Part shown: in pieces, positions 1,527 to 60,362 of the stretch
Layout: each line of letters starts with the position of its first letter
How positions within the stretch are numbered: the first letter of the stretch is position 1
Source of the DNA: a virus
Lineage: Duplodnaviria; Caudoviricetes
Strand: one strand, 5' to 3'
IMG/VR virus record: IMGVR_UViG_3300035208_007487
Length of the DNA: 64,000 nt
Translations under genes and position numbers: made by a program
The notes under the pieces: model-generated
The model's database searches: none
Seen by the model: only the letters and a program-made list of their open reading frames with translations
What the model was told of the DNA's origin: nothing

Positions 1527-2120
1527 TTATTGATTAGGTTCTTCAACTTTAGCTTCACTATAAGGAAGTGTTTTAAGTATTTTTAATATATCTGGATTAT
1601 AGCAAATTAAATCAGTAACTCCATTACCAACATATACCATAAATCCATCAATCTGATGAACTCTTAATCTAGATAATAATATATCTTCATGCCCATGATA
1701 ACAATCATACCATATAGATTGAATTAATTCTAATAAGGTATCATTACTTTCTATAAGTGATTCTCTCATTAATCTTTTAGCTCTAATTGGATCTTCATCC
1801 CAATTACTAAGAACCTCTAATTCATCAGGAAGAGCTCTAGTTAGGGCATTAAGCAAACCAATTGGATACTTTGTTTTTGAACCTTTTATATTTGTTCGTC
1901 TGGTTAATCTAACTTCATTTAAAAATCCATCTGGATAGGCGTAGCTAATTGCTTTATCTCTGCTTAAACTTAGATAAAATCCTGGCCCTAATTGGGCATT
2001 ACTATTTTCAGTTAGGGCATATCTATCTTCAAATTTATTAAACTTTACTTTACTGCCATGATACCAAATCTGAGGAATTGCTACAGATTCGTATAAACAT
2101 CCATTATACTCTAATTTCAT
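1527..2120 (-). CDS. tagged putative virion-internal protein, ADP-ribosyltransferase-like (ART-PolyVal type)
   Basis: N-terminal MKLEYNGCLYE tag; WYHGS...F..F...GPGFYLS...A.SYA and IDGFMV...ICYNP motifs typical of ART-fold domains. Confidence 0.75.
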   Translation of the reverse strand: MKLEYNGCLYESVAIPQIWYHGSKVKFNKFEDRYALTENSNAQLGPGFYLSLSRDKAISYAYPDGFLNEVRLTRRTNIKGSKTKYPIGLLNALTRALPDELEVLSNWDEDPIRAKRLMRESLIESNDTLLELIQSIWYDCYHGHEDILLSRLRVHQIDGFMVYVGNGVTDLICYNPDILKILKTLPYSEAKVEEPNQ

Positions 2121-2146
2121 ACTAAGTATTTAGATATAATTAAAAT

Positions 2147-3470
2147 ATGAGTGATATAACGGGCTACGGAATTAAATTAAATAAAGAATATAGGCCATAT
2201 TCAAAACTATCATTTAATGAATTCAACAAATCAAATAGTAGCCTTTCTAAGAAAGATATTGAAGAATCTTATGAGAAAACAATACATAAGGTTATAAAAT
2301 ATATTATTGCAATCGGTGCCGAAGAATTACAATCTCAATTAAAAAAATACTCTGAATATGACCCTATTGTAATAAATAGAGAATCAATATCTGAAAAAGA
2401 ATATGCTGAGTCTGGTAGTATGATGGGATTTGAAGTTAGATTATATGCGGATACTGAAATATTAGATAAAATGGTCGAAGCTGCTAAAAAAATAAAGCAG
2501 GATGAAAATATATATACTGAACCTATTAATGGTAAAATTAAAGAAAGTAAATTTAAAGATACATTAGATACTATTATTAAAGTATCGGCTAGGAGAAATA
2601 ATAATGCGTGAAACAATAACTTCTCATCAATTAGCTAAAGCATTACTTGAAGATGAAGACTTGCCTATTCTTATGATTGTAAATGGCCACACATATAGTT
2701 CAGAAGCCCATAAGTATTCACATGGAGAAATTAAATTAGGAATAAGCACTATAATATATGCTAGTGGATATTCTAAACATATTGTTATAGGACATATGTT
2801 AGAAACTGAGGATAATATTATGGATATTCGAAGTATCAATAAAGATGTCTAGGCAAATATTAGAAACTTGTTATTTCTGTCCATTTTGTAAAAAGAAAAG
2901 TGGAACTTTAATTAATGGTAATTGTCCAGACTGTGGAAATCATTATGTAAATCATGAATTAATTCTTTCAAACGATTCAATAATAGTAGTTATTGCAATA
3001 TTACTATTTTTAATATTAATATGGCGCTATATATGAATGAATTATTTGCTTTAGTTATATTGGGATGTATCGAAATATTAGTATTGTTATTACATAATTT
3101 TATTGAAAATCATCCTACTTTATATAATACATTAAGATATTATGGGAAATTTACTAACTGCTGTGATATGGTTGGATATGATAAAAAATTATCAAAATTT
3201 TCATATGATACTTATATTTGCAAAAAATGTAATAGAAAATATATTGAAGTTGATGGGAGAAAGCTAGTAAAATTTAAAGCATTAACTATAAAACAAACTT
3301 ATAAAGAAATTACTTATACTATGCATAGAACTAAAGTTAAGCGTATTATTAATCCAATTCTACGCAAAATACAATTTTTTACAAATAAGCCTTATGTAAT
3401 TGCTTCGGTAACTGATCATGGCTATTTTTTGTATTATAAAATAATGCGAGTCTTATATATAAAAATATAA
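2147..3470 (+). CDS. four small hypothetical genes (2147-2611, 2604-2852, 2845-3036 CxxC plus TM helix, 3021-3470)
   Basis: Overlapping start/stop operon; first gene preceded by TATAAT-N6-ATG. Confidence 0.65.
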
Positions 3471-3475
3471 AATAA

Positions 3476-4216
3476 TCACATTTTCATTTGCTCTACTATT
3501 TCTGGTGAAAAATGCGATCTAATGACATTTGAAATTTTATGCTCAATAGCAGAAATCTTTTCATAGCTAACATTAAAATATTCATGACATTCAGCTAATG
3601 TTTTATATCCACATGAATGACTAATAAAAATCTTTTGTTCAGTTTTATCAAAATTGCATAATATCGAATCTATCTTATTTTTTATTGAAATAGCATCCAA
3701 GCCGTCTTCAGCTTCAGTGGATGAATAAGTTTCTTGTTCAATTGTGTCAAATATATCTAATTCTTCACCGTCTAAATTAATAACTTTATTAACATATTGA
3801 GTTTTTTCATTTGGCAATCCTTTTTTATAATTTCTAATTGAAGCATTTACTCTAGCTGCGGGCATCCTAATTACGCCATTATAACTAATATTCAAAAATA
3901 TTAACAGGCTTTTTTTAATATGCCAAACAATATACGTTAAAAATGTATTAGTTTTATCATCTTTAAATTCTTCAATTCCCTCACTAGCACCAATAATACC
4001 TTCATTAAAAATTTCATTAATATCTATTAATGTTTTAGTATAATAATATCTAGCACATGCAAATATGAATTTGTAAATAGAAGCTAATGCTAAATTCTTA
4101 TATGAAATATCATGAGTTTCATGATATTTTTTAACCAAAGCTTTTTGCTCATCTGAGCTTAATGAAATAGCTTTCTTTAAAATCAATTCCATGTTTGGAT
4201 TTAATTGAACATACAT
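3476..4216 (-). CDS. sigma70-family RNA polymerase sigma factor
   Basis: Region-2-like DINEIFNEGIIGASEGIEEF...FLTYIVWHIKKSL, VIRMP, and region-4 HTH TLAECHEYFNVSYEKISAIE. Confidence 0.8.
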   Translation of the reverse strand: MYVQLNPNMELILKKAISLSSDEQKALVKKYHETHDISYKNLALASIYKFIFACARYYYTKTLIDINEIFNEGIIGASEGIEEFKDDKTNTFLTYIVWHIKKSLLIFLNISYNGVIRMPAARVNASIRNYKKGLPNEKTQYVNKVINLDGEELDIFDTIEQETYSSTEAEDGLDAISIKNKIDSILCNFDKTEQKIFISHSCGYKTLAECHEYFNVSYEKISAIEHKISNVIRSHFSPEIVEQMKM

Positions 4217-4971
4217 TATTTTTTGCTCTTTTTAGTTGGCATTTTTCTAAAAGACCATTTATCGTATCCCTTAGATTCTGCTATAACTTTATCACTTCCA
4301 ACTGGCATTGGAGGAGTTTTAGTATTCGCAAGAATGCCTCCAAGATACATTTCAATCTCTTGAAAAGCAATATAAGGTTTAATTATTCTATGAAAATTAA
4401 AATCTTTAAGTATAGGATTTTTGATTAATATACTAAGAATTCCTTCTTTTAATAATACATTTGAAATATTACTTATAGGCATTCCAAATATTTTTTCTTC
4501 ACTAACTTGGGATAATCCTTCGCCCTTAAAAATCCTTTCACTTATTCCACAATCATAATAATAATAATTATCCCCAGACATAATTACAAAAATAGGGCAA
4601 TCTAAAGCCCTAAAGATATTATGATTAATTACTGGAGCAAAGCTAGGGGCTTTTCTCCAAGGAATGTCTTCAATTATGTTACAATAATCTTTATAAACAT
4701 TTTTCTTTTCAGCATACCTATCTTTAAGTATATTATAATCTTTTTCAAGATGAGGATATAAAATACCATCAATAGTGATAAGACATTGATACAATACTCC
4801 GCAAAATCCAATTACAGCATTGCAATTAGTATTGATTTTATATTTGTCAAATAGATCACTACCTAGTTCATAAGATTGAACTCTTGAATATATTGGATAA
4901 TCTTCAGAGTTTCCAGTAAAAGACATTCCAATATCATAATAATCTTTAATTTTTTCTCCAAGTATTCTCAT
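4216..4971 (-). CDS. conserved phage hypothetical protein
   Basis: 251-aa ORF translationally coupled to the sigma gene; C-terminal AFQEIEMYLGG...KGYDKWSFRK motif. Confidence 0.7.
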   Translation of the reverse strand: MRILGEKIKDYYDIGMSFTGNSEDYPIYSRVQSYELGSDLFDKYKINTNCNAVIGFCGVLYQCLITIDGILYPHLEKDYNILKDRYAEKKNVYKDYCNIIEDIPWRKAPSFAPVINHNIFRALDCPIFVIMSGDNYYYYDCGISERIFKGEGLSQVSEEKIFGMPISNISNVLLKEGILSILIKNPILKDFNFHRIIKPYIAFQEIEMYLGGILANTKTPPMPVGSDKVIAESKGYDKWSFRKMPTKKSKK

Positions 4972-4972
4972 T

Positions 4973-6776
4973 TCACACCTTTGTTTGAAAATTTCTCATG
5001 AATACTTTACGAATTAATGGACGATGATGATTTGATTTATATAATTCAATCCAGGAATGCCCGCAATCGCACCTACAATAAATTACATGAGATGGGCCTT
5101 CACATTTAGCCGAAATCGTGAAACTAGTTGAAGAACTAGCTCCTTCTTTTTCTAGCGCAATAGATGAATATTCAATTGCTCCACATTTAGGACAAGCAAA
5201 TTGTTCTTCTAAGGCTACATCATTTTCATCTAATTCAAGTTGGTTAACTTTATTTAATTGCATTTTCCACTTTCATTATGAAGGGGCACCAATCTGGAAC
5301 ACTTGATTCTTTTTTGGCATTATATGGACGACATCCAGTAGTTGAATAACAATCTTTTTTAAATTTGCAGCCGATTTTAATATCATCATCACAAAAATCA
5401 TCATATGGATCAGGATCAGATTCAATTGTATGAGCTGGGCATTCAATACAAGTAGAAATGCTTAAATCCCCTACATTAGCTATATTACTCATATTGGCTC
5501 CTTATTTATGGGCTGTCTAAAAATTATACAATTATACAGACTAGGTGTCAATTATTTTACCAGGAATTTTTACATCCTCGAACCATTCAGACAATAAAAA
5601 AGCTACAGCGGCTGATTTATGTTCATGCTTAGGTTCCCAACTACTCTGAATTGCCATCAAATGCTTTAAAGCAGTTTGTCCATCAATTCCTTCTTTTTCG
5701 ATAAAATCAGTATCTCCAGATAATCCTTCAAAGAACCAAATACTTTGAATTTTATTCCATTTACTCTGACCTTCTTTAAATTCATTTGGAATATCTTCCC
5801 ACTTAGGTAATAATTTTTCCATATCACCTCCAAAGACCATCTCAACTTTGCTAATTTCTTTAGGTAAATATTTCATGATTATCTCCTTTATTAAATAAAA
5901 TGCCTCTTCCTAGTTTTATAGAAAGAGGCATAATATTTACAATTTAGCTAATTACTTAGAGACAGTTGGCTTAACACTATCTTTTTCAATAGATATACTA
6001 TTGATAAAGAAATCTTCAGTGCAAAAAGTTGCACGAGCCTGTTGATAGTTAATTTTTAAGATGAAACCACTATCAATAGCCTTGTTGATTAATACTGCTT
6101 GCGAATCAGAAGTAACCACGAATTCATGGTCTTCTGTAGACATAGATCCCACACCATTCCGCATGATTCCCAAAGACGCATCTAATAATGTGTAATTAGG
6201 GCAAAGGATAGGATTCACTTTAATCAGTTTTTTAGGCTGTGCAATGGTATTATTATCAGTAGATGAATATCCAAAACATCCACCGAGCATGCAAAGCATG
6301 GTTAATCCGATTGCTAATCCAAGTTTCTTCATTGTTCTTCTTTCTGATTGAGTGGAAAATTATTCTTCGTCGTCATCATCTAGATCATGAACAATCTGAT
6401 TTAATCTATCAATTGTTCCAAATGGTGTATCATGATTATCATCATCATCAAATGCTCTAGACATTGGTCTAATTCCAGTTACATCTAAACCAATATCTAA
6501 AGGTAATTTGGCAATATCACCTAAAGCACTAAACAACCCCATTTTAAGCTCCTTTTATTCAATTATATCGCTAGCTAAATCAATGCATGCTTCAGTTATG
6601 CATACACAGCTATATTTTTCTCGTCCAGGTATTCTATCAATTTGCTTTACAATATAGGCTTGCCCATATGCCAATGATTCATCAATAGGTGCTCCTACAA
6701 TAATACCACGATATCCTTCTTTTTTATCATCTATTCGCTTGATAATAATTTCAGTTCCTTCTGGATAGTATCGCAC
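4973..6776 (-). CDS. cluster of small hypothetical genes (4973-5263 and 5250-5492 Cys-rich; 5541-5876; 5952-6332 lipoprotein; 6360-6542 acidic; 6555-6776)
   Basis: ORF track; GGAG RBS upstream of several; LGGC lipobox in 5952-6332. Confidence 0.65.
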
Positions 6777-6868
6777 ATATTCTCCTTTATTTTTGAGTGA
6801 ATATTTTTCACACTAAATAAAATATCTTGCTTAATGTGATGAAATCACCTAATTCTACGTTAAATAAT

Positions 6869-7780
6869 TTATTCATCCTCAACAAATTTTCCATTAATCA
6901 TTTTATAAAACGTATTGGCTTTAATGCGCTTTCCATCAATTTTCAAGGTGCTGCAATTAATGATTTCCCCATTAATCCATTCAGATAAAGTCAAAAAATC
7001 ACCTAAAGCTCCTTTGGCTTTGCTATCAGGTCCAAATGCAACTGCTAAAGATTGCTCTCCACTAACAATTGCTTGACTGCTAGTGCCTACTGTGGATGCT
7101 AAAGATTGTTTTCCACTATTTGAGGCTAATGAACGATATCCACTATTTGAGGCTGATGACCAATTTCCACTATTTGAGGCTAATGAACGATATCCACTAT
7201 TTGAGGCTGATGACCAATTTCCACTATTTGAGGCTGATGAACGATTTCCACTATTTGAGGCTGATGAACAATCTCCACTATTTGAAGCTGATGAACAATC
7301 TCCACTATTTGAAGCTGATGAACAATCTCCACTATTTGAGGCTGATGAACGATTTCCACTATTTGAGGCTGATGAACAATCTCCACTATTGCTGGCTAAT
7401 GAACAATCTCCACTATTTGAAGCTGATGAACAATCTCCACTATTTGAGGCTACTGAACAATCCTTAGTTTGATGCTCTTTAGACTTAGCATATTCAGCGC
7501 ATAATTGGGTATATTCAATAATATCAATTTCTTTAATAATAGTTATTTTTGTACCGGCCTGTTTAGAGTCCTTAGATTCACCATTAACAATTCCATCAAG
7601 TTCTACTTCACAGAATCTAGATTCTCCTGGATTATAGTAAGAAAATACATCTAGTGGGTTTGTGCAAGCATGAAAGCCCTCTTGACATAGCTCTGCATGA
7701 TCTGTTACATAGGTCTTACCTATTTCGTATTGAAAATCTCTGCACTGCAAATTCTTATCAAATCCCTTAAAACATTTCAT
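6869..7780 (-). CDS. phage protein (DUF7666-like N-domain) with 9-aa SSASNSG repeats
   Basis: KGFDKNLQCRDFQYEIGKTY...CQEGFHAC.NPLDVFSYY N-domain followed by about 13 xxS[SLV]ASNSG repeats. Confidence 0.8.
   Translation of the reverse strand: MKCFKGFDKNLQCRDFQYEIGKTYVTDHAELCQEGFHACTNPLDVFSYYNPGESRFCEVELDGIVNGESKDSKQAGTKITIIKEIDIIEYTQLCAEYAKSKEHQTKDCSVASNSGDCSSASNSGDCSLASNSGDCSSASNSGNRSSASNSGDCSSASNSGDCSSASNSGDCSSASNSGNRSSASNSGNWSSASNSGYRSLASNSGNWSSASNSGYRSLASNSGKQSLASTVGTSSQAIVSGEQSLAVAFGPDSKAKGALGDFLTLSEWINGEIINCSTLKIDGKRIKANTFYKMINGKFVEDE
7113..7462. repeat. 27-bp coding tandem repeat, about 13 units
   Basis: Unit approximately TCCACTATTTGAGGCTGATGAACAATC repeated head to tail with no spacers. 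Confidence 0.95.
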
Positions 7781-7846
7781 TTTCTAGCACTCTCTTTCCA
7801 TTTTATGGGTGTGATTATTCAGATCTAACTGGAGACTCATTAATTT

Positions 7847-9876: not shown

Positions 9877-9993
9877 ACTTTCCCCTAAATTTATTAGTTA
9901 TTGAATATTACATATCTAATATAACAAAATTATATAAAGATGTAAATGTAAAAGTTAGTTAATTTCCATTTTTAACTAAAAACATACTAGAGA

Positions 9994-11280
9994 CTAATTT
10001 AATATTTCTAACTTTTCCTTAATATATTCTACAACATCACTTGACAAAGACTCATCATATTTGTTTTTATGTTCAATCCAATGCAATTTATTTTCTGCAC
10101 TTATTAATGGATTTTTAAACATCTCTAATAATTTAGCTAAATCTAAACCATTCACATTATCCATATGCAATACTGAACCAAGCATCATTGAAGTTGGAAC
10201 TAATATGAAGGCAGTAATATCCTCAGATGAAGCATTATTCTCAATTCCATACTTTAGCTCACTTTGGAAATTTTCAATATACTTAATATATTCATTAAAT
10301 TTAAACTCGCCAAATACATCAACAATCCAATCTATATTCTTTTCACTCAACTGCTGTAGCTCATCATAAAAAATAGAAGTCATCTCAATAATAGTTTTTT
10401 TATTAAACCCGAACATACAATGGGTATTAGTACTAAATCTACGAGATAATATGTTTCTAAATTTACTAGCAAATGGAATTTTATACTTATCAGGTATTGA
10501 ATCAAAAAATCCACTATTATTAAGTTTATATTCATAAAATTTAGGTATTTCATCAAATGATCTTAGTACCTTTTCACTACTTGAATTATAAAGAGCCTGT
10601 GATATTTCTTCATATGTAATTTTGTCATATAAATTAGGATGAGATTTAATATAATTGAATAAATCTACTTTAGTCTTTCCAACTATATTAGATGGAGTTT
10701 TGTCAAATAGAGTAACGTCTATTACATTGTACGAAGTAGGACTTAAAAATACTGCTTGGGCTGGTTCATTGGTATGTATAATTCCTCTATGATGATCAAC
10801 TACATAATCATATCCTAATTTCCGCAATAAAGAATTCCAGTTATTGGCATTTTTTGAATATTCCATAGTAGCATACCAAATATATCCCCCTGGACTTTTA
10901 AATAATGCCCCACTTTCTATATCGTGCATTTCTAAACTAGAAAAACCTAAAACTTTTAACTTTTCTAAATCATTGACTAAATTAGCCTCACTATAATGTT
11001 GTAGATCTAATTTAATAGTTCCTGGCCTAGGTTTTATAAAATATACATATCCATTTTTAGCTTCACTAGTATATTCTGGAACTTTTCCTTCCATGTCCTC
11101 TACATTATAGGCATAAATTCCATTTGGAGTCTCCCATTTAGATTTAGGATTAATTCCTATTTTATTAATATCTCTATATGAAAAATATACATCAGGATCT
11201 TGTTCATATTTTTCTCTTAATTCATCTACTGATGGATTTATTTTAGATTCATATAAAAATCCATTATAAGCAATCTTCAT
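9994..11280 (-). CDS. tagged putative virion-internal protein, paralog A (possible ART-fold N-domain)
   Basis: MKIAYNGFLYE tag; N-domain YFSYR.INKIGINPKS.W.TPNGIYAY...LGYDYVVD..GIIH.NEPAQAVFL shared with 11277 and 13135. Confidence 0.7.
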   Translation of the reverse strand: MKIAYNGFLYESKINPSVDELREKYEQDPDVYFSYRDINKIGINPKSKWETPNGIYAYNVEDMEGKVPEYTSEAKNGYVYFIKPRPGTIKLDLQHYSEANLVNDLEKLKVLGFSSLEMHDIESGALFKSPGGYIWYATMEYSKNANNWNSLLRKLGYDYVVDHHRGIIHTNEPAQAVFLSPTSYNVIDVTLFDKTPSNIVGKTKVDLFNYIKSHPNLYDKITYEEISQALYNSSSEKVLRSFDEIPKFYEYKLNNSGFFDSIPDKYKIPFASKFRNILSRRFSTNTHCMFGFNKKTIIEMTSIFYDELQQLSEKNIDWIVDVFGEFKFNEYIKYIENFQSELKYGIENNASSEDITAFILVPTSMMLGSVLHMDNVNGLDLAKLLEMFKNPLISAENKLHWIEHKNKYDESLSSDVVEYIKEKLEILN

Positions 11281-12584
11281 ATTATTCCTAATCCTTGTTT
11301 AATATACTCTTGAACCTCACCTTGAAGAGATTCGTCATTTATGTCTCCTAAACTAATCCAATCATTAGTATTATTAGCGGCTATTAATGAACTAGAAAAC
11401 TTTTTAAGTATTACGTTTAGCTTATTTTTATCAATATCCCCTAATGCCACATCAACCAATGGCTTATTTTTAATAGTTGGTCCTAATACAAAGTATTTAA
11501 TTTCATTAATATTAGCATTTTTCTCAATACCAATATCAAAGGAACTCTTGAATCTATCAATATATTTCATATATTCATCAAAACTAAATTCATCAACGAT
11601 TAATACAGCCCAATCTATTCTAGTTGTACTTAATTTCTGTAGATTCTCATTAAATATATCAGTTAATTCCAATATTGTTTTTTTATTTATTTTTTGCATA
11701 CATCCTTCATATACTGAAAATCTTCTATCTAATAATTTTTTGAATTTAAGTGCAAAAGCTACTTTATAATCATTAGGAATTGCACTAAAGAAACTATTTG
11801 GACTAACATTAATACAATATTCATAAAATGGCTTAATGGTGTCAAATGATGATAATACCTCTTCTTTAGATGAATCATCTATAGCATCAATTATTTTATA
11901 CATTTGACTGCCTAATAATTTCTTGTAGGTAGCAATGTTGTTATTAATTTTAAGATAATTGAACACATCCCATTTTGCTCCTCTTGGGATTTGCTTATCC
12001 TCAGAGTTATCAAACTTTGATACATCTAATACCGTAAATGATGATGGATTTAAAAACACTGCTTGTGCTGGCTCGTTAGAATGTATAATCCCCATATGAT
12101 GATCAACTACGTAATCATACCCCATTTTTCTAAATATTGCATTCCAGCTATTTGCACTAGTTGAATACTTCATCGTAACATACCAAATATACCCACCTGG
12201 AGTTTTATAATAAGATTTTTGCTCAATTTCGGCATCACTTAATTTAGAAAATCCTAATTGTTTTAATTTTTCTAAATCTTTTTTAAAATCATTACTATTA
12301 TAGGATTGTAAGTCTAATTTTATTGAACCTGGATTTGGCTTAATAAAATATACATATCCGCGATCCCCACCTGTATATTGTGCTTCTTGTTCCCCCATAT
12401 CATCTATATTATACGCATATATGCCATTTGGAGTTCTCCATTCAGATTTTGGATTTATTCCAATCTTATTAATACTTCGATATGAAAAATATACATTAAG
12501 ATCGTCTTCATATTTCTGTTTTAGTTCGTCCACTGTTGGAGTATTTTTAGATTCATATAAAAATCCATTATAACATATCTTCAT
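11277..12584 (-). CDS. tagged putative virion-internal protein, paralog B
   Basis: MKICYNGFLYE tag; homologous to 9994..11280 along most of its length; TAAATA-N6-ATG. Confidence 0.7.
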   Translation of the reverse strand: MKICYNGFLYESKNTPTVDELKQKYEDDLNVYFSYRSINKIGINPKSEWRTPNGIYAYNIDDMGEQEAQYTGGDRGYVYFIKPNPGSIKLDLQSYNSNDFKKDLEKLKQLGFSKLSDAEIEQKSYYKTPGGYIWYVTMKYSTSANSWNAIFRKMGYDYVVDHHMGIIHSNEPAQAVFLNPSSFTVLDVSKFDNSEDKQIPRGAKWDVFNYLKINNNIATYKKLLGSQMYKIIDAIDDSSKEEVLSSFDTIKPFYEYCINVSPNSFFSAIPNDYKVAFALKFKKLLDRRFSVYEGCMQKINKKTILELTDIFNENLQKLSTTRIDWAVLIVDEFSFDEYMKYIDRFKSSFDIGIEKNANINEIKYFVLGPTIKNKPLVDVALGDIDKNKLNVILKKFSSSLIAANNTNDWISLGDINDESLQGEVQEYIKQGLGII

Positions 12585-12611
12585 ATAAAATATTTATAAT
12601 AAATAATAAAC
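12585..12611. promoter_or_regulatory. back-to-back TAAATA late-type promoters
   Basis: TATTTA at 12591-12596 (minus-strand TAAATA, 6 nt from ATG 12584) and TAAATA at 12600-12605 (6 nt from ATG 12612). Confidence 0.75.
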
Positions 12612-13118
12612 ATGAAGATTGCTTTTAATAATTATCTATATGAAAGTATAGACAATCTACCATTTCCACCTAAAGGATCTATTCCTATCCCAAGTGGATA
12701 TACTAGAATGTATCACCAAACTGATCCAGCTAAAGTTCCAAGTATTCTGAAAGACGGATTACAAATATCTAAATCTAGAGGCAAACTTGTAGGAGATCCC
12801 GTTGGAATATGGGCTTCAGATAATCCAAAAGGATTTTATGGAGATAGCTCGCATCTAGATACTATAGAATTTAAAATCCCAACTGTCGAATATAATCAAT
12901 TACTTGGACATAGCTTAATAGAACGAGATGTACCCCCAGAAGATATACTTGCAGTCCATTCAGATTGGCAAAATACCGTCAATTATATGGTTAAAAATAA
13001 TATGATAGATCAAGTCAAAAATGGAGATTTCGACTATCTTATGAATAAAGAATATGAACATGCCTCAGATTATGACCAATATACAAAAGCAATTCAATAT
13101 GTAAAATCCCATTACTAA
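12612..13118 (+). CDS. tagged putative virion-internal protein, ART-fold (H-type) domain
   Basis: MKIAFNNYLYE tag; RMYHQT...SILKDGL...GIWAS...DVPPEDI pattern of the ART/Tpt1-like fold. Confidence 0.7.
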   Translation: MKIAFNNYLYESIDNLPFPPKGSIPIPSGYTRMYHQTDPAKVPSILKDGLQISKSRGKLVGDPVGIWASDNPKGFYGDSSHLDTIEFKIPTVEYNQLLGHSLIERDVPPEDILAVHSDWQNTVNYMVKNNMIDQVKNGDFDYLMNKEYEHASDYDQYTKAIQYVKSHY

Positions 13119-13134
13119 TTTATAAATATCTAGC

Positions 13135-14613
13135 ATGAAGATTGCATTTAATGGCTACTTATATGAAGCTAGAAATATTCCAACTGAAGATGAATTGAGA
13201 GAAAAATACGGATCATTAGGAGATTCTTATTTTTTCTCGTATAGATCAATTAATAAAATTGGATTAAATCCACAATCTCAATGGAATACCCCCAATGGAG
13301 TATACACATATAACTTCAAAGATCTTGGAAATAGAGAATCCCCATATAAGGGAACTTCTACAAATGGATATATATATGTTATTAAACTTAAACCAAACAT
13401 CAATGGAATAGATTCACGTACTTATAATACAATAGACCTAGAACAAGATCTTAATAAACTTAAACAATTTGGATATGAAATAGATTTAGAAAAATATTAT
13501 AGAATGAATAACCCATTTAAAGCTATCTGGACTGCTACATATGATGTTAAAAAATCACCTAATGATTGGACTAAAATATTATTAGCTTTGGGATATTATT
13601 ACGTTAGAGATAGAGGTGAAGGAGTTATTCATACTAATGAGCCATACCAAACAGTATTCTTATCACCTAAAGCTTATGATATAGTAGATTCAGGAACATA
13701 TGGAAATGTGGCTATATTTAATGGAACAATTGACCAAAAATGGATAAAAAAATACGCAGCATCTCTTACTGAAAAAAATGTAAAACCTGTTGCAAAATCT
13801 ATCTACAAATATTTTACTCAACATAATAATTTACCAAGATTCGATATATTTAATGCAACAAATACTAATATACTTACTGATATATATAAAACGGCTTTTA
13901 AACTAATAGGAACTTATTCAATTAATCAAATATTTCAAGAAAATCCAAAAATGTTAGTTGCACTTGGGATATCATCAGATTTTGCAAAAGAATTAATAAA
14001 TCAATACAAATCCGCTTTTACTAATTCTACTAGAGCTGAATGGCTAAAAGCTTTAAATGATGAAGATAGATTAGAATATGTTGATAAATTTATAGATACA
14101 TTTAAAAAAATAACAGAAGTTGATACTTATTGGATAGCTTATTTACAAATTAAAGATAGAATCCCAATGATAATAAAATTGGCCAAGGAAATCAATAGTA
14201 GTATAATTAATACACCAGATAATCTTAATGTCCTAATCTATGATATTAGGCCAATATCAAAAGAAGACCAATTGAAACTATTTGATATCCTTATCCCCTC
14301 AATAAAAGAAATAACTAATGATGGAAATGTACAGTGGCTTAATAACTTATTATATCAATATCCAGAACTTCAAGCTCAAAAATTAACTACTACTCTGCAT
14401 GATGAAGTTGCTAAATTAATAACAAATAATGAAATGTTTTTCTTAAGCTATTTTACTATCGAGGACAATAAGCATATGAAAGCATTTGAAATGATTATGC
14501 ATACTTTTAGCAAATATATTAATAGATCAATTAAAGAATACCCTGAAAATATCTTTTGGAAACATTACCCTACTCCATTTAAACAAGTATTTGAACCTAA
14601 AGAATTAAATTAA
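13135..14613 (+). CDS. tagged putative virion-internal protein, paralog C
   Basis: MKIAFNGYLYE tag; same N-domain as 9994/11277 with unrelated helical C-terminus; TATAAATA at 13121-13128. Confidence 0.7.
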   Translation: MKIAFNGYLYEARNIPTEDELREKYGSLGDSYFFSYRSINKIGLNPQSQWNTPNGVYTYNFKDLGNRESPYKGTSTNGYIYVIKLKPNINGIDSRTYNTIDLEQDLNKLKQFGYEIDLEKYYRMNNPFKAIWTATYDVKKSPNDWTKILLALGYYYVRDRGEGVIHTNEPYQTVFLSPKAYDIVDSGTYGNVAIFNGTIDQKWIKKYAASLTEKNVKPVAKSIYKYFTQHNNLPRFDIFNATNTNILTDIYKTAFKLIGTYSINQIFQENPKMLVALGISSDFAKELINQYKSAFTNSTRAEWLKALNDEDRLEYVDKFIDTFKKITEVDTYWIAYLQIKDRIPMIIKLAKEINSSIINTPDNLNVLIYDIRPISKEDQLKLFDILIPSIKEITNDGNVQWLNNLLYQYPELQAQKLTTTLHDEVAKLITNNEMFFLSYFTIEDNKHMKAFEMIMHTFSKYINRSIKEYPENIFWKHYPTPFKQVFEPKELN

Positions 14614-14699
14614 GTATAGGCCAAATAGATACTTTTCTAATAAAGTAAATGGAAATGGTGTTTAATAAATAATGAATAGCTCCTTTTTTATTGGAGCAC

Positions 14700-15115
14700 C
14701 TATATGCCCATAAAATTTTTTTACATATGGGGGTATTTAAATAATAATTTTTTTGAGGGTACTTAATAACCGCCCTTTAAAATATGATGATGGACATTTT
14801 TGAGAAATGTGACAATATGGGGCAAAATTTTTTAAATTAATGGGGGTCATTAATAACCCTCTTTTGAATGTGAAGAGCTATGGGGCAAAAATTTTTATTC
14901 TTTGGGGGTAGATTGAAATATGAATACTTGTAAGGATATTTAATAACCCCTTTGGGAATACTGGTTGACATTTTTGAGCATAGGGGGGAATATGGGGCAA
15001 AAATTTTTATTCTTTGGGGGTCTAAGATAAGATATAGGGGGCATACCTGCCACCCTCCCTATATAACAAGGGTGGCCCTACACCTTAGCCATAGCTATTT
15101 TAATACCCCCTAATA
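14700..15115. repeat. non-coding iteron-like repeat region (candidate origin or genome terminus/packaging site)
   Basis: 31-bp TATGGGGCAAAAATTTTTATTCTTTGGGGGT at 14879 and 14991, degenerate copies at about 14703 and 14816; TAATAACC x3; GACATTTTTGAG x2; no ORF. Confidence 0.6.
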
Positions 15116-47292: not shown

Positions 47293-47414
47293 TTTTCTAC
47301 TAAATGAGCTTTAAAAAAGTCTTTAAAGGTATTGGTTTAGCAGATTGGCAACATGTACTATTTGCAAATTTTATTTGTGGAAGTAATTTAAAAGATAAAG
47401 AGAAATAACTATTT

Positions 47415-48014: not shown

Positions 48015-48249
48015 ATTCACAAGATAATATAAAACTAATGTCATGTCAACACTAAAAACCACATCGGCTATAATAAATGATATGAGCCATTTAGCCCTGA
48101 TAAGTAATTTTATTTGACAATAAATCGACAAATCTGGCAAACCTGCGACTGGAGCTAAGAGCTACACATATGAATCTCAAACGTATATTAATAAAAACAC
48201 ATATTCAGATTGTGAAGGATTTTAATTTTAGCATTATATATCTTTTTGT

Positions 48250-49365: not shown

Positions 49366-49368
49366 TAA

Positions 49369-51681: not shown

Positions 51682-52035
51682 TATCTAATCTCCTTTGGAT
51701 TTAGTATTTTTAATCCATTCAATAGTTTCTTCTTTAATCAATCTTTGAATTTTATTATGACGGTATTCAAATCCTTTTTCTTCAGCAATATTTAACTCAA
51801 CTAATTGTAATATTTCTTTGGCTAGCAGAGTATCTTTATTTTTAAAATATTCTATATAATAAGGATATAAGTAATCTCTTATTATTTGATGATTGTGAAT
51901 ATTAAATAAAGCTTTTTTGCTAATTTGTGGGGCCATTAATAATTATTTAACAATAATTAAAACATTTTAATAATTTATAAAAAGACTATATAAAATCCTA
52001 ATAGATCAGCCTAATCTCAAATAGTTCTAGTAATG

Positions 52036-53325: not shown

Positions 53326-53436
53326 TTTATATTATTTGCCCATTATTTTTTTGTATAAAATTTATTTATACCATCAAACTCCCACTGAATTTTAACTCAG
53401 TATTGTAATATTAACATATTTAGATAAATAATAGAT

Positions 53437-54135
53437 ATGTTTTTGCATGAGTTCCCTGCCTCAATAAAGTCGCAAACTCCTTTCAATTTAGTTATATCTA
53501 ACAGAGTTAAAACTATTACATTACCTATTCCTAAGTTTACCATCAATTCTAATTTAATATCTTCAAATAATTTAAATATACTTTTTACAACTCCTTACAA
53601 AGAACAAGAATTATTCAAAACATTTAATGCCTCAGAAATAGAATATTTAATAACCAGAATAACTGCTGTTTTATCTAATATAAATCTTCCAGAAAATATA
53701 TCAATATATCACTATGATCAAATATTTAACAATAATCTATTTAAATCATATAAACACTATACTAAATTAACTCATATTATTGCTAGCAATAATCAAATTT
53801 ATCCAATATATGAAAAAAATGATATAATAATAACTGAACCATCTCTAGTAATAGATGAATTAAATAGCAAAAAACTCATTAACAAAATTGCTAATGAAGT
53901 TTCAAATTCACTTATATTCATTAAAATAAAGCGGGATAACTTAACAAACATAAGTCACATATTTGGAGTATTATCACAAGTAGCTAATATATTAAATTAT
54001 GATGACTATGATAAAATATTTGCAATAAACCTTAAACAACCTATTGATCTATATGGAGTGCTCACTCAATCGGGTGTTAATAGCTCATTGGCAGTTATTG
54101 ATAGATCTAATGAATTATTTGAATTCCTACAATAA
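53437..54135 (+). CDS. hypothetical protein (late-type promoter)
   Basis: TAAATA-N6-ATG. Confidence 0.7.
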   Translation: MFLHEFPASIKSQTPFNLVISNRVKTITLPIPKFTINSNLISSNNLNILFTTPYKEQELFKTFNASEIEYLITRITAVLSNINLPENISIYHYDQIFNNNLFKSYKHYTKLTHIIASNNQIYPIYEKNDIIITEPSLVIDELNSKKLINKIANEVSNSLIFIKIKRDNLTNISHIFGVLSQVANILNYDDYDKIFAINLKQPIDLYGVLTQSGVNSSLAVIDRSNELFEFLQ

Positions 54136-54136
54136 G

Positions 54137-55282
54137 TTATAAATTAATATTATGTTTTTTAAGCTCTGAGGTTTCTTCTTGAATTTTATTAGCAGCATCT
54201 TTTGCATTATCGCTATGTTTTTTTACACCATCAGCATCTCCTCTATTTTTTGCAGAAATAGCTTGATTATTTTCAAATACGCAATCTTTGATGGCTTGAT
54301 TAAGAGCGGTTTTTTCTAAAGATATTGCAGGCTCATCATCACGATTTATTTCAACATTAGAACTTCCAAATGAAATATTTCTAATTTGATTAATATTATA
54401 GTTATGTAATTGATTACTTATATATAACGCATATTCATAGGCTGAATCAGATTCAACTAATGCTTCATCAACATCTATATATTCGTCATGATTACATGAA
54501 TCTAAAGATGGACAGCCATGAACACTTATTAGAAATGCCGCACCTAAGCAAATACTAGCCCAAATTCCTTTAGACATATTTCAATCCTCCGTATCATTAT
54601 CTTCAAATTCCCAAGATGGTTTAAGTTCTCCATCTGACTCTTGTTTCCAAGTAATATCAAAATCATCTTCAGGGCTATCCATATCAGAATCAATGAAAGT
54701 ATTGGGTGATTTTTTAAACAAATTCTTAATAAAATTGAATATGCTCATAGCCCAAATATATCTGCAAATATGCTTAATCCTTCTAATGCAATACCGGCTC
54801 CTGCTGCTAAGATATCTCCAGGAATACCTCCTAAGTCATCATCAATTGCTAAAGCAATTCCTGCGGCTGTTGCAAATGAGACTAATAATAGATTTGCATC
54901 TTCACTATTCGAGCAATCTTTTTTATGTAAAATTACATCATATGCAAAATCACTAGCTTCAGTTTTGCTCAATCCTTTTGATTGAGCATATTTAATTAAT
55001 TCATCATAGCTCATGGGCGCTTACTCCATATCTATTTAATTCAAATATTTCACATTCAGCTTCAACGAATACTTCAAATCCAAGTTCAGTTGTTTTTGAA
55101 ATAATTTTCATACTGGTAGGAATACCTGTAGACAATGAATCAATTGAAACATTCTTTAACATATCCAATGCTAAATTAGTAGCTTCACTAAATCCTTCGG
55201 ATTCAGATATTACCTCAGTTTTCACTTTATTATAATAAGGGAAATCACTACCAATCATTTTTGTTGTGATATATACGAACAT
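54137..55282 (-). CDS. small genes 54137-54577 (lipoprotein-like), 54581-54748 (acidic, absent from track), 54745-55014, 55004-55282
   Basis: Overlapping ATGA junctions; manual translation of 54581-54748. Confidence 0.6.
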
Positions 55283-55296
55283 GATGCGCTCCTTTA

Positions 55297-55734
55297 TTAA
55301 ATGCGTTCAATACCAAAATTAAATTTAGCATCAAGGCTTAAAAGCTCAGTTCCAGGTAATACTTCAATCTTCTTTCGCATATTCACATTTCTGTCAATAG
55401 ATCCTGAAATGGTGCTAATGTAAGTTGGCAGTTGATTAATTGGAAGATTACTTAATCCATCCAGGACAAAATCAAATCCCCCATCTAAAAATAGAATATC
55501 ATATTTATTTTTAGAAATGAAATTTAATGCAGTAATTCCATCCATAGCAACATCTGAAAATAGTTCGCCTGATTTTTCAGCAATTGATTTTTTAAGATTT
55601 GCATAATCTTCTGAATCAAAATAGTGGCAGTGCTTCAAGATAATGAAATGTAGAGCGGCAAATGCTCCATCTCCAGGAAACATATTTGCAAATTCTCCAA
55701 AATCATCATCAACTAGCAGAATTTTAAGAGACAC
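55297..55734 (-). CDS. receiver (REC)-like domain protein
   Basis: LKILLVDDD...DGITALNFI...YDILFLDG. Confidence 0.7.
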   Translation of the reverse strand: MSLKILLVDDDFGEFANMFPGDGAFAALHFIILKHCHYFDSEDYANLKKSIAEKSGELFSDVAMDGITALNFISKNKYDILFLDGGFDFVLDGLSNLPINQLPTYISTISGSIDRNVNMRKKIEVLPGTELLSLDAKFNFGIERI

Positions 55735-55913
55735 ACAAACCCTTTCATTGATTCAAGCTCTTCCTAAAGGAGGTCTACATTATGCACCAACTATCAATAT
55801 AATATTTTTTAGAAATGCTGGCAAGTGAATTCAGCCTTCTTTTGATTTTACATGATATTTTGTTTTTATTATATTAAGCTGGAACTTTTAAAATTTCGTA
55901 TTGAAAGGATAAT

Positions 55914-58409
55914 ATGTCATTTTTGCTAATATTGGGAATAAGTGGCTGGATATTAAATATCCTATTTTATGTCATATTTTGGAAAATAATAGATAAAGAA
56001 GAATTTGATATTAATGATTTAGGAGGAGAATGCATTCTTCATATTTTAGTATTAATACCATTTTTATTTATAATAGGATATTTGTTCGCTTGTGCATTGT
56101 TTGAATTAAGCATAGGAGATGACGAATGAAAGAAGCCGTATATTCTGTTAAATTTTTCCGTCTAAAAAATGGAATTTTAACTGGTCCTAGCCAAGGATAC
56201 AAATACACCAAACCGTCTAATTTTGGGGAGTTTGGAAGATGGCATACTATGGGTAAAAACGATGAAGATCCTGGCATATGCACTTGTGATAAAGGATTTC
56301 ACGCTCCTATATTAGAGTCTATAGAATATTGGAAAAACAATTATTATTATGAAGCAGATAAAATGCCTATTAAAGCATATATTGTACAATTAGGGGAATT
56401 TTGCTCATATGAAATTGATCCACTATTTAGTGGGAAAATAGCTTGTCAAAGAATTAGATTAATTAGAGAATTAAAGGGATTTAGTTTATGCAAGGCTGCT
56501 ATTAATTATTTAAACAAAGAATATAATTTAATAAGTGATAAATTAATTAGCGAATGTATTGCAAAGTATGGCAAATTTGACTATATTGACTATAAAGAGG
56601 CTAAGTGATGATACGAGGAATTAAAATATTAGATGAAAGTTGTACCAGTTTATTATTTAAATATAAATTTGGATTTGATCTACTTAATCATACGTTAGGA
56701 TATCAAACTTGGGGCCATACTGTTAAATGCGGAGAATGGGGATTTCATGCTATGGCCCGAGATGTTAGTAATTATTATTTGTATAAAAAGATTTCTAGCA
56801 AAATTAAAAATCGAGCATTTATTGTAGAAATGACTGATGCTCTTGATTATGATTACGATTTAAAAATAATGGCAACTAGCTATATTAAATTTATATATGA
56901 ATTTGAACCATCTTGTTTATTAGATAAGGCAATTTTCAATAAAATATGTGATAAATTTAATGTAATTTCTTCTAAAGATTTCCCAACAAAAGGCATAATG
57001 TAATGGCTAAAGCTATAAAATTTTTCAAGAATAACGGTGGATTTATTACTAGCCCGCATACTGGTTTAGCTTATGTTCCAGGTAATTTATATCGTACTTC
57101 TTTACCATTAGTGATGTGCGCAAATGGATTTCATTTTCCAAGCAATTTACTTGGAATAGAAAAATGGGGATTAAACTATTATACTAGTCATTTAACAAGC
57201 TGGATAATTGAAATTAGTGGAGCTATTATAGAAGACGATATTTATAATAAATTTGCAGTTCAAAATATGAAATTAATTGAAGAAGTGTCAATTACAATTA
57301 GATCATTTGATCGAAGAAATTCTCTAAGAGAATTAAAAAGCACCTTAAGAAATAATCATCCAGATTTAATATATTTTAATAGGAAATTTAGAAGCACTTT
57401 ATTATCAGTACCCGAAAAGCAGTGTTATTTAATAAAGGATTAATAATGTCAATAGCAAAATTAAATAAATTATGCTCATACTTATTATGGGATGATACTC
57501 ATCTGGACCGTATTAATTTTCATTTGCCTAATGATGGAAATAATCATTTAACATTTTTTATAGAAAAAGGTTTGCATGACTGCCGAATATGTATTAAGAT
57601 TAAACGCATATCAGATGCTAAGATTAGAATATACCCAAAACAATTGCTAGAAATTACTAATTTTGGAATCAATATTGATGCTATAAAAAATATGATTAGA
57701 ATATTATCTGATTGGGATTCATTTGATATATGTCAAAAGGATCTTAAAAATTTTAATTATGATTACACTGGATTACCTAACTACGAAGGAGATTCTAATG
57801 AATGAATTTACCACAGAAAAGCCTCATACTAAACTATTAGCCTTAAAAAAAGCATTACATGCATTAGGTTTTAAGTGTGAATTTTGGCCTGTTAATTTTG
57901 CAGATGGAACCCAAGGTCATTCTATTCACGTATTAGCTCCTAAGAGCAATACTACCCCAAATATGAAATCTCAATTACTTGAAGATACTTCTATGTTTTC
58001 AATTAGTGTATTATTAGATGGAACTGTTAAAGATTATGATGATAATGGCTTGTCTATTTTATTTAATGAAGATCTTTCCCCTAAATCCTTATCTCAAGCC
58101 ACTATTATTGAAGGGATTCCGCATATCCAGAGTGTGATTTTGGATAGATTAGTAACCGCACTTGTACCAGAATTTGCTTGGGTTAGTATTCAAGCTAATG
58201 AATTAATTAGTAAATTTGCTTGTTGTAAAGATCCAATAAAAGTGAGAAAGATTATTAATTCTCTTATTAATAATGTATTTACTTCAAGTACTTGTGAAAG
58301 CGCTAGTGAATGGGGATTTAATGATACTTGTGTAAGAGATAGTATGTGTGAGGATATTGATAATAAGTTTGAATATGTTAAAGAAGTTATTGAAAAATAT
58401 GCGGAATAA
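55914..58409 (+). CDS. operon with three C..GFH (DUF7666-like) paralogs (56126-56608, 56605-57003, 57003-57443) and hypotheticals
   Basis: CDKGFHA, CGEWGFHA, CANGFHF followed by [IV][VI][EQ]...K...[RK][LF]I.E. Confidence 0.65.
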
Positions 58410-58419
58410 AGGAATCATA

Positions 58420-58547
58420 ATGAATAGGATAGTTAATACAAATTCAGCAACTTTATAATTATATACTCCATGATAATATTCTTTACTTAATATTATGCTA
58501 TTTGGAATAGCCATTTCATATAAAAAACCATTATATGCAATCTTCAT
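58420..58547 (-). pseudogene. truncated tagged ART-like gene relic
   Basis: TATAAATA-N6-ATG, MKIAYNGFLYE tag, YYHG motif; the ORF then runs antisense into the convergent gene ending at 58409. Confidence 0.6.
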
Positions 58548-58584
58548 GCTTACTATTTATATTACTATAATATATAATTAAAAT

Positions 58585-59232
58585 ATGAATCCAGATATAT
58601 TAGAAGAAGAAATATTATCAAAAACCACTAGAATTATTATGAATAAATTAGATGAGGCTAAAATATGTAAAAGAATAAAAATTGGAAAAATACCAAAAAA
58701 TCAAATAACTAGAATGATAACAAGTACTATATCAATGGAACTACTGCAAGACTTAACTTGTTTTCATGGTATTAATATGGATATTTCTGAAACTGTAACT
58801 TATGATATTTTGTATCAAGTGTATTGTGATCTTATTAAGTTCATTAAAGAAAAAGCAAATGTACTTAATAAAGATTATTATCCAACAGCAGACGGGGCAT
58901 TAGCTCGTATGTATGAATTATTGCATAAAGGAGATATTGTCATTAGCCCTTCCATCCCAACTATCCTAAATTTAAAATACAAAAGAATAAACGACTATAC
59001 ATTACTAGATATTGAAACAAATAAATTAATGTATACTTCACCAAATATTAATGAACCATTAACTATAATAAGTGCTCCTAATGATTTAACTATTAATATA
59101 GAAAGCATTTCTGATGAATTGAATATCAGAAAGGAAGACTTTTCTCCCCTATATACAATAAAGCTAACGTATTCATTATATACTAACTACGAATCTCTAG
59201 AGTCTTATATTTTATCTAATCCATGTGATTAA
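58585..59232 (+). CDS. divergent partial homolog of T4-type major capsid protein gp23/gp24
   Basis: TRMITSTISMELLQDLTCFHGINMD resembles gp23 SRQLKAAYSIELAQDLRAVHGMD (recalled from memory). Confidence 0.55.
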   Translation: MNPDILEEEILSKTTRIIMNKLDEAKICKRIKIGKIPKNQITRMITSTISMELLQDLTCFHGINMDISETVTYDILYQVYCDLIKFIKEKANVLNKDYYPTADGALARMYELLHKGDIVISPSIPTILNLKYKRINDYTLLDIETNKLMYTSPNINEPLTIISAPNDLTINIESISDELNIRKEDFSPLYTIKLTYSLYTNYESLESYILSNPCD

Positions 59233-59244
59233 TAAATACCTAAT

Positions 59245-60291
59245 ATGAAGCTGCTATTTAAGGGATTTATCTACGAATCTCAACAAGTCAAAATTAAGTA
59301 CATTGAACCAGGAACTGAATTATATCATGGAACAGGAGAATCTATCAATGGTAATTTAGGTATTGGTGACACTGATAAAATATTATGGTTAGCTGATAAT
59401 ACGGCAATTGCCCAATCATATATTCATTGTTCACTAAAAACAATGATATATTCTAAATCATTAATAGCTCCATTAAATAAAAAAGAAACAACTTTAGCTA
59501 AAATCCAAAAACAATTAGGTATTATTTTTAATATTGAATCATATGATTCTAATGGAAATCCTATTAAGTATAGTATTGTTAAACCGGATAGCTTTAATTC
59601 ATCACATGAGAATAACAAAAAAACATATGAAACAAAGCTAAAACCACTATCTGATGAAATAAAAACAACTAAACATGAACTAGATAAGGTAAATGCCGAA
59701 ATAGTCAAATACTTAAAAGATAAATCATATAAAATAAATACGCAAGAACTAGATTCAAAATACATGAACTTGTCAGCTAAATTGGAGGAATTAAATAAAA
59801 AATATTCTAAAATCCAATCTTCAAATCCAGATCCAACCCAAAGTAAAATAAAATACGTAGATGATAAATTAAAAGAATATGGATATACTGGAGACTATCA
59901 AAATAAATATGATGGATCAATATACAATCTATACCTAGATGAAGATGATAATCTTCTACCTTATGATCATCAAGATATGGGAAAATTATATATCGTTAAA
60001 CCAAAAAGAAGACTCAAATTTTTAGATATGTCTAGCGGAATATCAGATGAAGATTACTTGCTTTATAATGATCTTGAATTATTGAGAAGAACAGAAAAAC
60101 AAGGATACGATGGAATTATAATTGATGATATAGCGCAGCATGATAAATTAGGAAATGTTCCCCATATTAGCTATGGTGTGTTTAAAAAAACAATCCCAGA
60201 TCTGGAAATTGAATCTATTAATGCTTGCCACCCTAAAGAAATAAAAAATGAACCAACCTCAGAGTATTCTAAATATAAAGAATCAAAATGA
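59245..60291 (+). CDS. tagged putative virion-internal protein, ART-like domain split by a coiled-coil insert
   Basis: MKLLFKGFIYE tag; LYHGT...LWLAD...AQSY; GKLY; GYDGIIIDD; TAAATA-N6-ATG. Confidence 0.72.
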   Translation: MKLLFKGFIYESQQVKIKYIEPGTELYHGTGESINGNLGIGDTDKILWLADNTAIAQSYIHCSLKTMIYSKSLIAPLNKKETTLAKIQKQLGIIFNIESYDSNGNPIKYSIVKPDSFNSSHENNKKTYETKLKPLSDEIKTTKHELDKVNAEIVKYLKDKSYKINTQELDSKYMNLSAKLEELNKKYSKIQSSNPDPTQSKIKYVDDKLKEYGYTGDYQNKYDGSIYNLYLDEDDNLLPYDHQDMGKLYIVKPKRRLKFLDMSSGISDEDYLLYNDLELLRRTEKQGYDGIIIDDIAQHDKLGNVPHISYGVFKKTIPDLEIESINACHPKEIKNEPTSEYSKYKESK

Positions 60292-60362
60292 AAATAGTAT
60301 ATAATGCCTTTTAATATGAAAGTATAGACAATCTACCATTCCCACCTAAAGGATCTATACCT
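60288..60362 (+). pseudogene. decayed copy of the 5' end of 12612..13118
   Basis: MKIVYNAF*YESIDNLPFPPKGSIP; TATGAAAGTATAGACAATCTACCATT identical to the 12612 gene. Confidence 0.85.

Follow-up and report, generated by a model that had tools for sequence, protein, structure and literature searches.

A candidate capsid targeting sequence on diverse late proteins, several of them with an ART-like fold, in an uncultured T4-like jumbo phage

Background

The internal proteins of T-even phages form a diverse set whose sole common feature is the capsid targeting sequence, CTS (PMC3012670); all the T4 internal head proteins bind the core through it, and the protease gp21 trims gp23, gp24, Alt and the internal proteins by cutting off their N-terminal propeptides (PMC5694885). 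Here, a short peptide of similar character, 11 residues long and hereafter called the tag, is described at the start of proteins encoded in a 64,000-nucleotide stretch of viral DNA (IMG/VR record IMGVR_UViG_3300035208_007487). The whole stretch, referred to as the window, is a section (G000:C18:128001-192000) of the 212,780-bp contig C18, which has 29% GC and was binned with a metagenome-assembled genome. Positions are those of the window unless preceded by the name of a contig, and genes are referred to by their first coordinate. The C18 phage appears to encode at least 12 intact tagged late proteins that are otherwise unrelated, about half of them with a putative ADP-ribosyltransferase (ART) fold, and it is quite probable, at roughly 0.7, that the tag is this phage lineage's version of the T4 CTS.

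The likeness to the CTS of IPI, IPII, IPIII and the Alt propeptide lies in the placing of a peptide of about 10-11 residues at the N-terminus of unrelated late proteins, its hydrophobic-x-Glu end, the presence of a gp21-type protease in the head gene module and the diverse, fast-changing cargo (PMC3012670, PMC5694885). The differences concern the sequence itself (MK[IL]x[YF]Nxx[LI]YE in C18 versus MKTYQEFIAE in T4), the number and size of the carriers (at least 12 tagged genes coding for up to 492 aa versus three small internal proteins and Alt) and the coding DNA, which varies among the C18 tags, whereas the two genes beginning with MKTYQEFIAE in the T4 record are DNA-identical copies. For C18, packaging and cleavage are predictions. 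The principle is textbook T4 biology, and the advance is in scope, not in kind.

With Alt, which is packaged in the T4 head and injected, part of the C18 cargo has in common late expression (as predicted for C18), an ART fold, an N-terminal propeptide ending in a protease motif and a proposed action at the start of infection. Alt belongs to the Alt/VIP2 clade with the R-S-E active site, whereas the cargo of gene 1527 is assigned to ART-PolyVal (H-Y-D, Tox-ART-HYD2 clade; PMC5512222) and that of gene 9994 to a further divergent branch. The ART-PolyVal domain was described in phage polyvalent proteins (Iyer, Burroughs, Anand, de Souza, Aravind 2017, PMC5512222; PF18760), for which a virion-to-host delivery route was proposed as well; there it is fused to MuF, portal or giant polyvalent proteins, while the product of gene 1527 is a stand-alone protein of about 185 aa with a predicted cleavable tag. 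In the phiKZ-like giant phages (phiKZ, 201phi2-1, SPN3US; protease gp175/gp245) many head-internal proteins are likewise processed at a short motif ending in Glu, and there are paralogues with identical N-terminal propeptides, such as SPN3US gp53 and gp54 (PMC5694885); these phages differ in having an S80 protease, an A/S/G-x-E motif and mostly long propeptides, and they belong to another phage lineage. Head-packaged ARTs beyond T4 have been predicted earlier from gene context and comparative genomics (PMC5512222, PMC9503650).

Tagged genes

The strict tag motif was defined as M-K-[IL]-x-[YF]-[NK]-x-x-[LI]-Y-E (11 residues) and searched for as a regular expression over all start codons. The scan of the window returned exactly eight tagged starts, namely the seven open reading frames (ORFs) and the relic with the peptides that had been listed in a preceding sequence-only reading of this DNA, and it bore out that every intact tag ends in [LI]-Y-E. 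The tagged genes are as follows (a slash marks the end of the tag).

1527-2120, minus strand: tagged gene, 197 aa, MKLEYNGCLYE/S
9994-11280, minus strand: tagged gene, 428 aa, MKIAYNGFLYE/S, without a promoter of its own, its start overlapping the stop of 11277-12584
11277-12584, minus strand: tagged gene, 435 aa, MKICYNGFLYE/S, TAAATA 6 nt 5' of the ATG
12612-13118, plus strand: tagged gene, 168 aa, MKIAFNNYLYE/S
13135-14613, plus strand: tagged gene, 492 aa, MKIAFNGYLYE/A
58284-58547, minus strand: truncated tagged gene, 87 aa, MKIAYNGFLYE/M
59245-60291, plus strand: tagged gene, 348 aa, MKLLFKGFIYE/S
60288-60365, plus strand: relic of a tagged gene, MKIVYNAF-stop-YE/SIDNLPFPPKGSIP, codon 9 being the stop TAA
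C18:17287-17598: tagged gene outside the window, DUF5661
C18:204347-204733: tagged gene outside the window, member of a ParB-C-like pair
C18:126772-127392: gene with a variant tag, MSALIEYNGFLYE/E
C18:207810-208208: gene with a variant tag, MIIEYDSALYE/A
C172:25652-26338, minus strand: tagged gene on a second contig, 228 aa, MKILYSGALYE/E, with an HEFIH motif

The scan suggested earlier for the whole genome was extended to the contigs and did find further tagged genes on C18 outside the window and one on C172, so that C18 holds 10 intact genes with the strict motif, two variants, one truncated copy and one relic. All the intact tags end in LYE or IYE, and the next residue is S, A, M or E. C172 is the second AT-rich contig of the bin; it has TnpB-type mobile elements in common with C18 (95-97% identity), the other DNA being different.

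In an all-versus-all BLASTP comparison, the products of 9994, 11277 and 13135 proved to be paralogues (11277 and 13135 being 52% and 32% identical to 9994, respectively), and in the non-paralogous tagged pairs the likeness was confined to the first 11-13 residues, that is, to the tag. The codons of the tag vary synonymously (AAA/AAG, TTA/CTA/ATT/ATC, GGA/GGG/GGC/GGT, TAT/TAC), which means that it is the peptide that is conserved and not a DNA or RNA element.

Phage context and head genes

C18 encodes a major capsid protein of the T4 type (Pfam Gp23, E 3e-71) whose identity to its counterparts in cultured phages does not exceed about 31%, and the head genes follow the T4 order: protease, scaffold-position protein, capsid protein. 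A megablast search with the window region 9900-14700 against 50,697 phage records gave no match. Given these T4-type head genes, the low capsid protein identity and the absence of a megablast match, the source is, on its gene content, an uncultured and distant T4-like jumbo phage. The gp21-like protease, whose absence the sequence-only reading had named as a point that would count against it, was looked for by profile and found: the Peptidase_S77 prohead protease gene lies at C18:71646-72386 (58.5 bits versus a cut-off of 27).

Beside the portal and protease genes there is also a gene on the minus strand at C18:75196-76335 coding for a 379-aa late protein, whose first residues, MNELIYKGRYYLLEE, are loosely related to the tag; its product may be a core or internal head protein.

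The tag as a probable capsid targeting sequence

The end of the tag resembles processing sites in the head proteins of the same phage. The S77 protease has an N-terminus of its own reading ..TPIYE/S, and the scaffold-position protein contains LIE/A and LLE/S near its start. When the capsid protein N-termini of T4, the C18 phage and four other uncultured T4-like phages were aligned, a single Glu was invariant. It corresponds to T4 gp23 Glu65, the residue after which gp21 cuts. The putative maturation site found in this way in the C18 capsid protein, GFLPE/S, is identical in five of six residues to the commonest tag end, GFLYE/S, and the sites at the aligned Glu in three further T4-like records are LAE, LME and LRE.

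In the AlphaFold2 (AF2) models of the proteins 9994 and 1527 (predicted local distance difference test, pLDDT, 90.3 and 93.0), the tag is the sole part of low confidence, with scores of about 45-52, and lies outside the fold. The possibility that it forms the first strand of the ART fold was rejected, as it is of low confidence, outside the domain, present on non-ART cargo and absent from 35 of the 150 representatives of the 1527 family. With 1527-2120 as the query, an exhaustive search had given 355 relatives; of the 150 representatives listed, 53 bear a short hydrophobic-x-Glu leader ahead of the YHG strand, the 35 just mentioned begin at that strand itself, and 22 carry the domain within large proteins. 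Close relatives of 1527 have a tag of the same type (MKIVFNNYLYE, MQVIYKGLLYE, MKVIHKGFVYE, MRMIHRGYVYE), and the tag is retained by orthologues of 12612 and 59245 that are merely 36-54% identical.

It was proposed in the sequence-only reading that the peptide is a modular capsid address removed by a gp21-type protease. That proposal is strengthened by the S77 protease, the protease-site-like end, the disorder and modularity of the tag, the late-promoter-like boxes in front of the genes and the tags of other phages described below, and what is added concerning events in the virion is a prediction. The tag would dock the proteins onto the scaffolding core during prohead assembly, the prohead protease would then cut after the tag Glu, and the mature proteins would remain in the head until they pass into the host cell together with the DNA.

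Tags in other phages

With a profile of the 9994 family, 74 IMG/VR loci were recovered in an alignment-based scan; a locus search with the single protein 9994 as the query gave no match. In many of the 74 loci, neighbouring genes with different cargo have one phage-specific tag in common, and in other uncultured T4-like phages this tag takes the form M-x-x-F-K-x-F-L-x-E, which is close to the T4 MKTYQEFIAE. Examples are listed below.

Locus L010: MINFKDFLLE, MISFKEFLSE, MINFKKYIIE
Locus L015: MKLKEYLKE, MKFELYLNE, MKFLNYLLLE
Locus L016: MNFKEWLINE, MNFKQWLLTE, MTTFKQFLE

A canonical ART-PolyVal domain (69 bits) directly follows the tag MKFKQWLIIE/S in L060:1182-1676. Of the 109 N-terminal homologues of the 9994 family, 78 show hydrophobic-x-Glu among their first 16 residues, compared with 288 of 1224 other ORFs of the same loci (odds ratio 8.2, Fisher p 1e-23). 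Peptidase_S77 was detected in two of the five such IMG/VR records searched (G002 and G005), the other three being fragments with an estimated completeness of 19-33%.

In record G002, locus L016 (6374-12145) contains three tandem paralogues of 567-725 aa whose first residues are M[RH]FK[QE]WLLLSEKIEVNGVQFRD and which contain the ART-fold domain of the 9994 type; the 70-kb fragment holds a head module with Peptidase_S77 alongside them. Leaders of another kind were also observed: MRK[IV]V[IL]A.. on seven different cargoes in locus L031 (G008, 295 kb) and MKY.K.P.N[GS]/ARRNP in locus L030 (G010, 168 kb). Neither ends in Glu, and no Pfam Gp23 match was obtained in these two phages, which suggests tag systems matched to proteases of other specificity.

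Cargo of the ART-PolyVal type

The product of 1527-2120 matches the Pfam family ART-PolyVal (PF18760) with 21 bits and an E value of 6e-4, under the cut-off of 31.2 bits; the same family is matched by 55 of the 56 aligned homologues, with a best E value of 4.2e-16, and phrog_25279 is matched by 1527-2120 itself at 1.6e-20. The domain extends over residues ~17-185. In ART-PolyVal, the site is made up of His on strand 1, Tyr on strand 2 and Asp on strand 5 (PMC5512222), to which the near-invariant His21, the invariant Tyr49 and a conserved Asp in the G-x-D-G strand (residues 156-159) of 1527 correspond, the strand positions being taken from the AF2 model and the Asp being assigned by motif and strand position, not by superposition. 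The PDB matches of the model include MbcT, AcrIF11, diphtheria-type toxins and PARPs. The assignment of 1527-2120 as an ART-fold protein of the ART-PolyVal (H-Y-D) type is therefore well supported, as far as sequence profiles and a model allow.

A second family with an ART-like fold

Gene 9994-11280 codes for an N-terminal domain of ~185 aa with a divergent ART-like fold followed by a helical part of ~230 aa. For the N-terminal ~185 residues of 9994, 11277 and 13135 no Pfam or PHROG family was matched. Relatives are many and lie on large viral contigs, the longest having 561 kb; the contigs of the closest homologues reach 268 kb. In the model of 9994, residues 1-12 score below 50; among the matches listed for it by Foldseek and VIA, the best after the top match to cyanophage A4 (see below) are ART-fold proteins with Z scores of 5.0-5.4. 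The lists for 1527 and 9994 alike consist mostly of AcrIF11 (6kyf), MbcT, RES/NatT toxins, diphtheria-type toxins, PARPs and tankyrases, with E values from 2e-3 to 0.1. An hhalign comparison of the 9994 family with the ART-PolyVal-type (1527) family gave a probability of 80.6% and an E value of 1.3e-5, and the residues invariant in the 9994 family are Ser34, Gly54, Tyr58, Asp162, Glu172 and Gln175. These alignments and models support the view that 9994, 11277 and 13135 represent a new, distantly related ART-fold family.

In the PDB, the chain matched best by either model (E 4.7e-6 and 3.1e-6) is 9k3a_B, an ejection protein located inside the capsid of cyanophage A4. In this chain of the A4 pre-ejectosome, the matched segment comprises residues ~905-1608 of the large ejection protein, for which no ART-like domain is described in the A4 paper; to judge from the models, the ejection protein may contain an unannotated ART-PolyVal-like domain.

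Cargo of the remaining tagged genes

Protein 59245 has a YHGT motif close to its start and GYDGIIIDD close to its end, a coiled-coil-like stretch lying in between. Its homologues at 36-42% identity retain the tag (MRITYKNYLYE/S, MNKLVYKGFLYE/S). The hhalign comparison for this family covered 21 columns over the GYDG strand, the match of the homologue P0186 to ART-PolyVal was weak (E 0.033), and the Atlas score of 59245 was 0.85. Weak support is thus provided by these comparisons for an ART-PolyVal-like domain with an insertion in 59245-60291. Gene 58284-58547 consists of the tag, ~17 residues and a YYHG motif, after which the frame runs into low-complexity sequence; it is therefore probably the truncated remnant of an ART-PolyVal-type gene, and an ART fold is weakly supported for it.

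YHQT and GIW motifs are present in 12612-13118, for which just four close homologues were found, all of them tagged. Sequence searches of Pfam, PHROG and PDB gave no support for this protein (with the PDB profile, matches were at chance level only), the tag alone aligned when its family was compared with both ART families by hhalign, and the Atlas search gave no more than leads to ART-clan clusters. Outside the window, the tag is carried by the 92-aa DUF5661 protein of C18:17287-17598 (38.8 bits). The product of C18:207810-208208 matches a PHROG annotated as the ParB C-terminal domain and has an SPKFA motif in common with that of C18:204347-204733, which was not supported by hhalign as a relative of the ART-PolyVal-type family.

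None of the toxin-type ART families of the Alt/VIP2 (R-S-E) kind in Pfam was matched at E <= 0.1 by any tagged protein, the motifs of the tagged proteins being YHG, GFY and GYDG versus the R, S-T-S and E-x-E of the Alt/VIP2 clade. The sequence-only reading had taken all the tagged cargoes for one family of ART-like effectors. This holds for four genes (1527, 9994, 11277 and 13135) and is plausible for 59245 and 58284; it does not extend to the rest, among them 12612, the DUF5661 protein, the ParB-C-like pair and the product of C18:126772-127392. Modelling of the cargo followed by Foldseek, as had been proposed there, returned ART-fold matches of moderate strength for 1527 and 9994. The members with an ART fold would most likely use NAD+ (nicotinamide adenine dinucleotide) to modify macromolecules of the host right as infection begins, by analogy with T4 Alt. 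Host RNA polymerase or defence systems, named as targets in the sequence-only reading, are purely conjectural, as is any NAD+-dependent activity.

Weighing the evidence and the other explanations of the tag

Several points weigh against the view of the tag as a CTS that brings ART-fold enzymes into the head. The likeness between the tag and the T4 MKTYQEFIAE comes down to three features, Met-Lys, a central aromatic residue and the terminal hydrophobic-x-Glu; the [LI]-x-E motif is short, and roughly one in four unrelated ORFs contains hydrophobic-x-Glu somewhere among its first 16 residues; the resemblance of the tag to the capsid site rests on five residues. As for the cargo, the matches to ART-fold structures are moderate (Z ~5.0-5.4, root mean square deviation 4-5 Å), and that to 9k3a_B has a high deviation of 8.4 Å. 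The 9994 family may not be an active transferase, since Ser replaces the strand-1 His of ART-PolyVal, and the cargo of 12612 is left without a fold assignment, an ART fold being unsupported by its sequence. The whole case is drawn from sequence and predicted structure, with packaging, cleavage and activity all being predicted.

It is possible, if unlikely, that the tag is nothing but a propeptide which keeps potentially toxic enzymes silent until it is removed by a protease late in maturation, with no role as an address and no need for a location in the head. The protease motif at the end of the tag would suit such a role, as would the fold of several cargoes, which is that of NAD+-consuming enzymes or toxins (MbcT, RES, NatT). 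However, the gp21-type protease of T4 works inside the prohead (PMC5694885), so cleavage by such an enzyme already implies packaging. Besides, inhibition by the 11 residues is unlikely because the tag is disordered and far from the predicted active-site strands, and the same tag is borne by the 92-aa DUF5661 protein with no obvious toxicity.

Somewhat less likely still is a different destination: instead of the head core, the tag might direct its carriers to some other structure assembled late, for example the tail, the baseplate or a site in the membrane. Such a role would agree with the scattered positions of the tagged genes among late genes and with their late-promoter layout, which they have in common with tail and baseplate genes. 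Yet the tag ends much like the capsid protein's maturation site and the head protease's N-terminus, the T4 CTS, as the closest precedent, directs proteins to the scaffolding core, and the structural match that comes nearest is to a protein located within a capsid. Both this explanation and that of a mere propeptide fit the protease-site match more poorly than a CTS does.

Another explanation places the conservation in the nucleic acid, either as a translation context of leaderless mRNAs or as a recombination cassette for the swapping of cargo. Most tagged genes have a late-promoter-like TAAATA 6 nt before the ATG, and the early observation that the distance is exactly 6 nt in six of them was reproduced, as was the overlap of 9994 and of the relic 60288 with the stop codon of a tagged gene upstream. 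In the 27-bp intergenic spacer 12585-12611 there are two back-to-back TAAATA boxes, one for each of the divergent tagged genes and each 6 nt from the ATG, an arrangement that implies overlapping divergent late promoters and mRNAs that are probably leaderless. Moreover, the relic 60288 copies the first 25 codons of 12612-13118, the similarity stopping thereafter, so 5' ends have been duplicated. Nevertheless, the TAAATA spacing was rejected as a special trait of the tagged genes: TAAATA-N5-8-ATG precedes 53 ORFs of at least 50 aa on C18, including ORFs the size of tail, baseplate or other structural genes, and represents the general late-gene layout, while the tag is missing from most of the other ORFs with this spacing. 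In addition, 9994-11280 is tagged and has no promoter of its own, the codons vary synonymously with the peptide fixed, and relatives with 36-42% identical cargo retain the peptide. A nucleic-acid feature is thus an improbable origin of the conserved start, and recombination at shared 5' ends may well be a consequence of the tag and not its reason.

The least probable suggestion, that the tag serves as a leader by which a modifying enzyme recognizes its substrate, as in radical-SAM systems of the kind known for ribosomally synthesized and post-translationally modified peptides, can draw on the radical-SAM gene C172:19677-20108 some 5.5 kb from the single tagged gene of C172, but the tag ends in a head-protease motif, and the suggestion was rejected for C18, the home of all the other tagged genes, where none of the 22 radical-SAM matches of the assembly is located.

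Implications

If the tag works as the CTS does in T4, the phage's own leader ending in a protease motif would list the injected cargo in the genomes of uncultured giant phages, and such cargo would constitute a pool of candidate anti-defence and host-takeover enzymes acting before transcription. It would also provide a second delivery route for enzymes of the ART-PolyVal type, as small stand-alone proteins with an address label that is clipped off. A broader picture, which we put forward only tentatively and regard as doubtful in its full extent, is that a clade of uncultured T4-like jumbo phages has made the T4 internal-protein signal into a general loading dock for a dozen head-packed proteins. 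Five to seven of these, from two families, would be ART-fold enzymes that use NAD+, with one family constituting an undescribed Ser-Tyr-Asp/Glu branch that would occur widely in giant phages and almost always have a tag, and the whole would form an injected kit for NAD+ warfare before phage gene expression. The main uses of this work lie in the tag as a rule for reading out virion cargo and in the new putative ART-fold family of the 9994 type, which is now open to tests of NAD+ chemistry.

A small gene between tagged genes

Between the tagged genes 58284-58547 and 59245-60291 there is an ORF on the plus strand at 58585-59232 coding for 215 aa, which shows a weak match to Pfam Gp23 (E 7.6e-4) and is 29% identical to the C18 capsid protein over 87 aa (pairwise E 2e-4). 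The ORF could represent a small gene derived from a fragment of the capsid protein gene.

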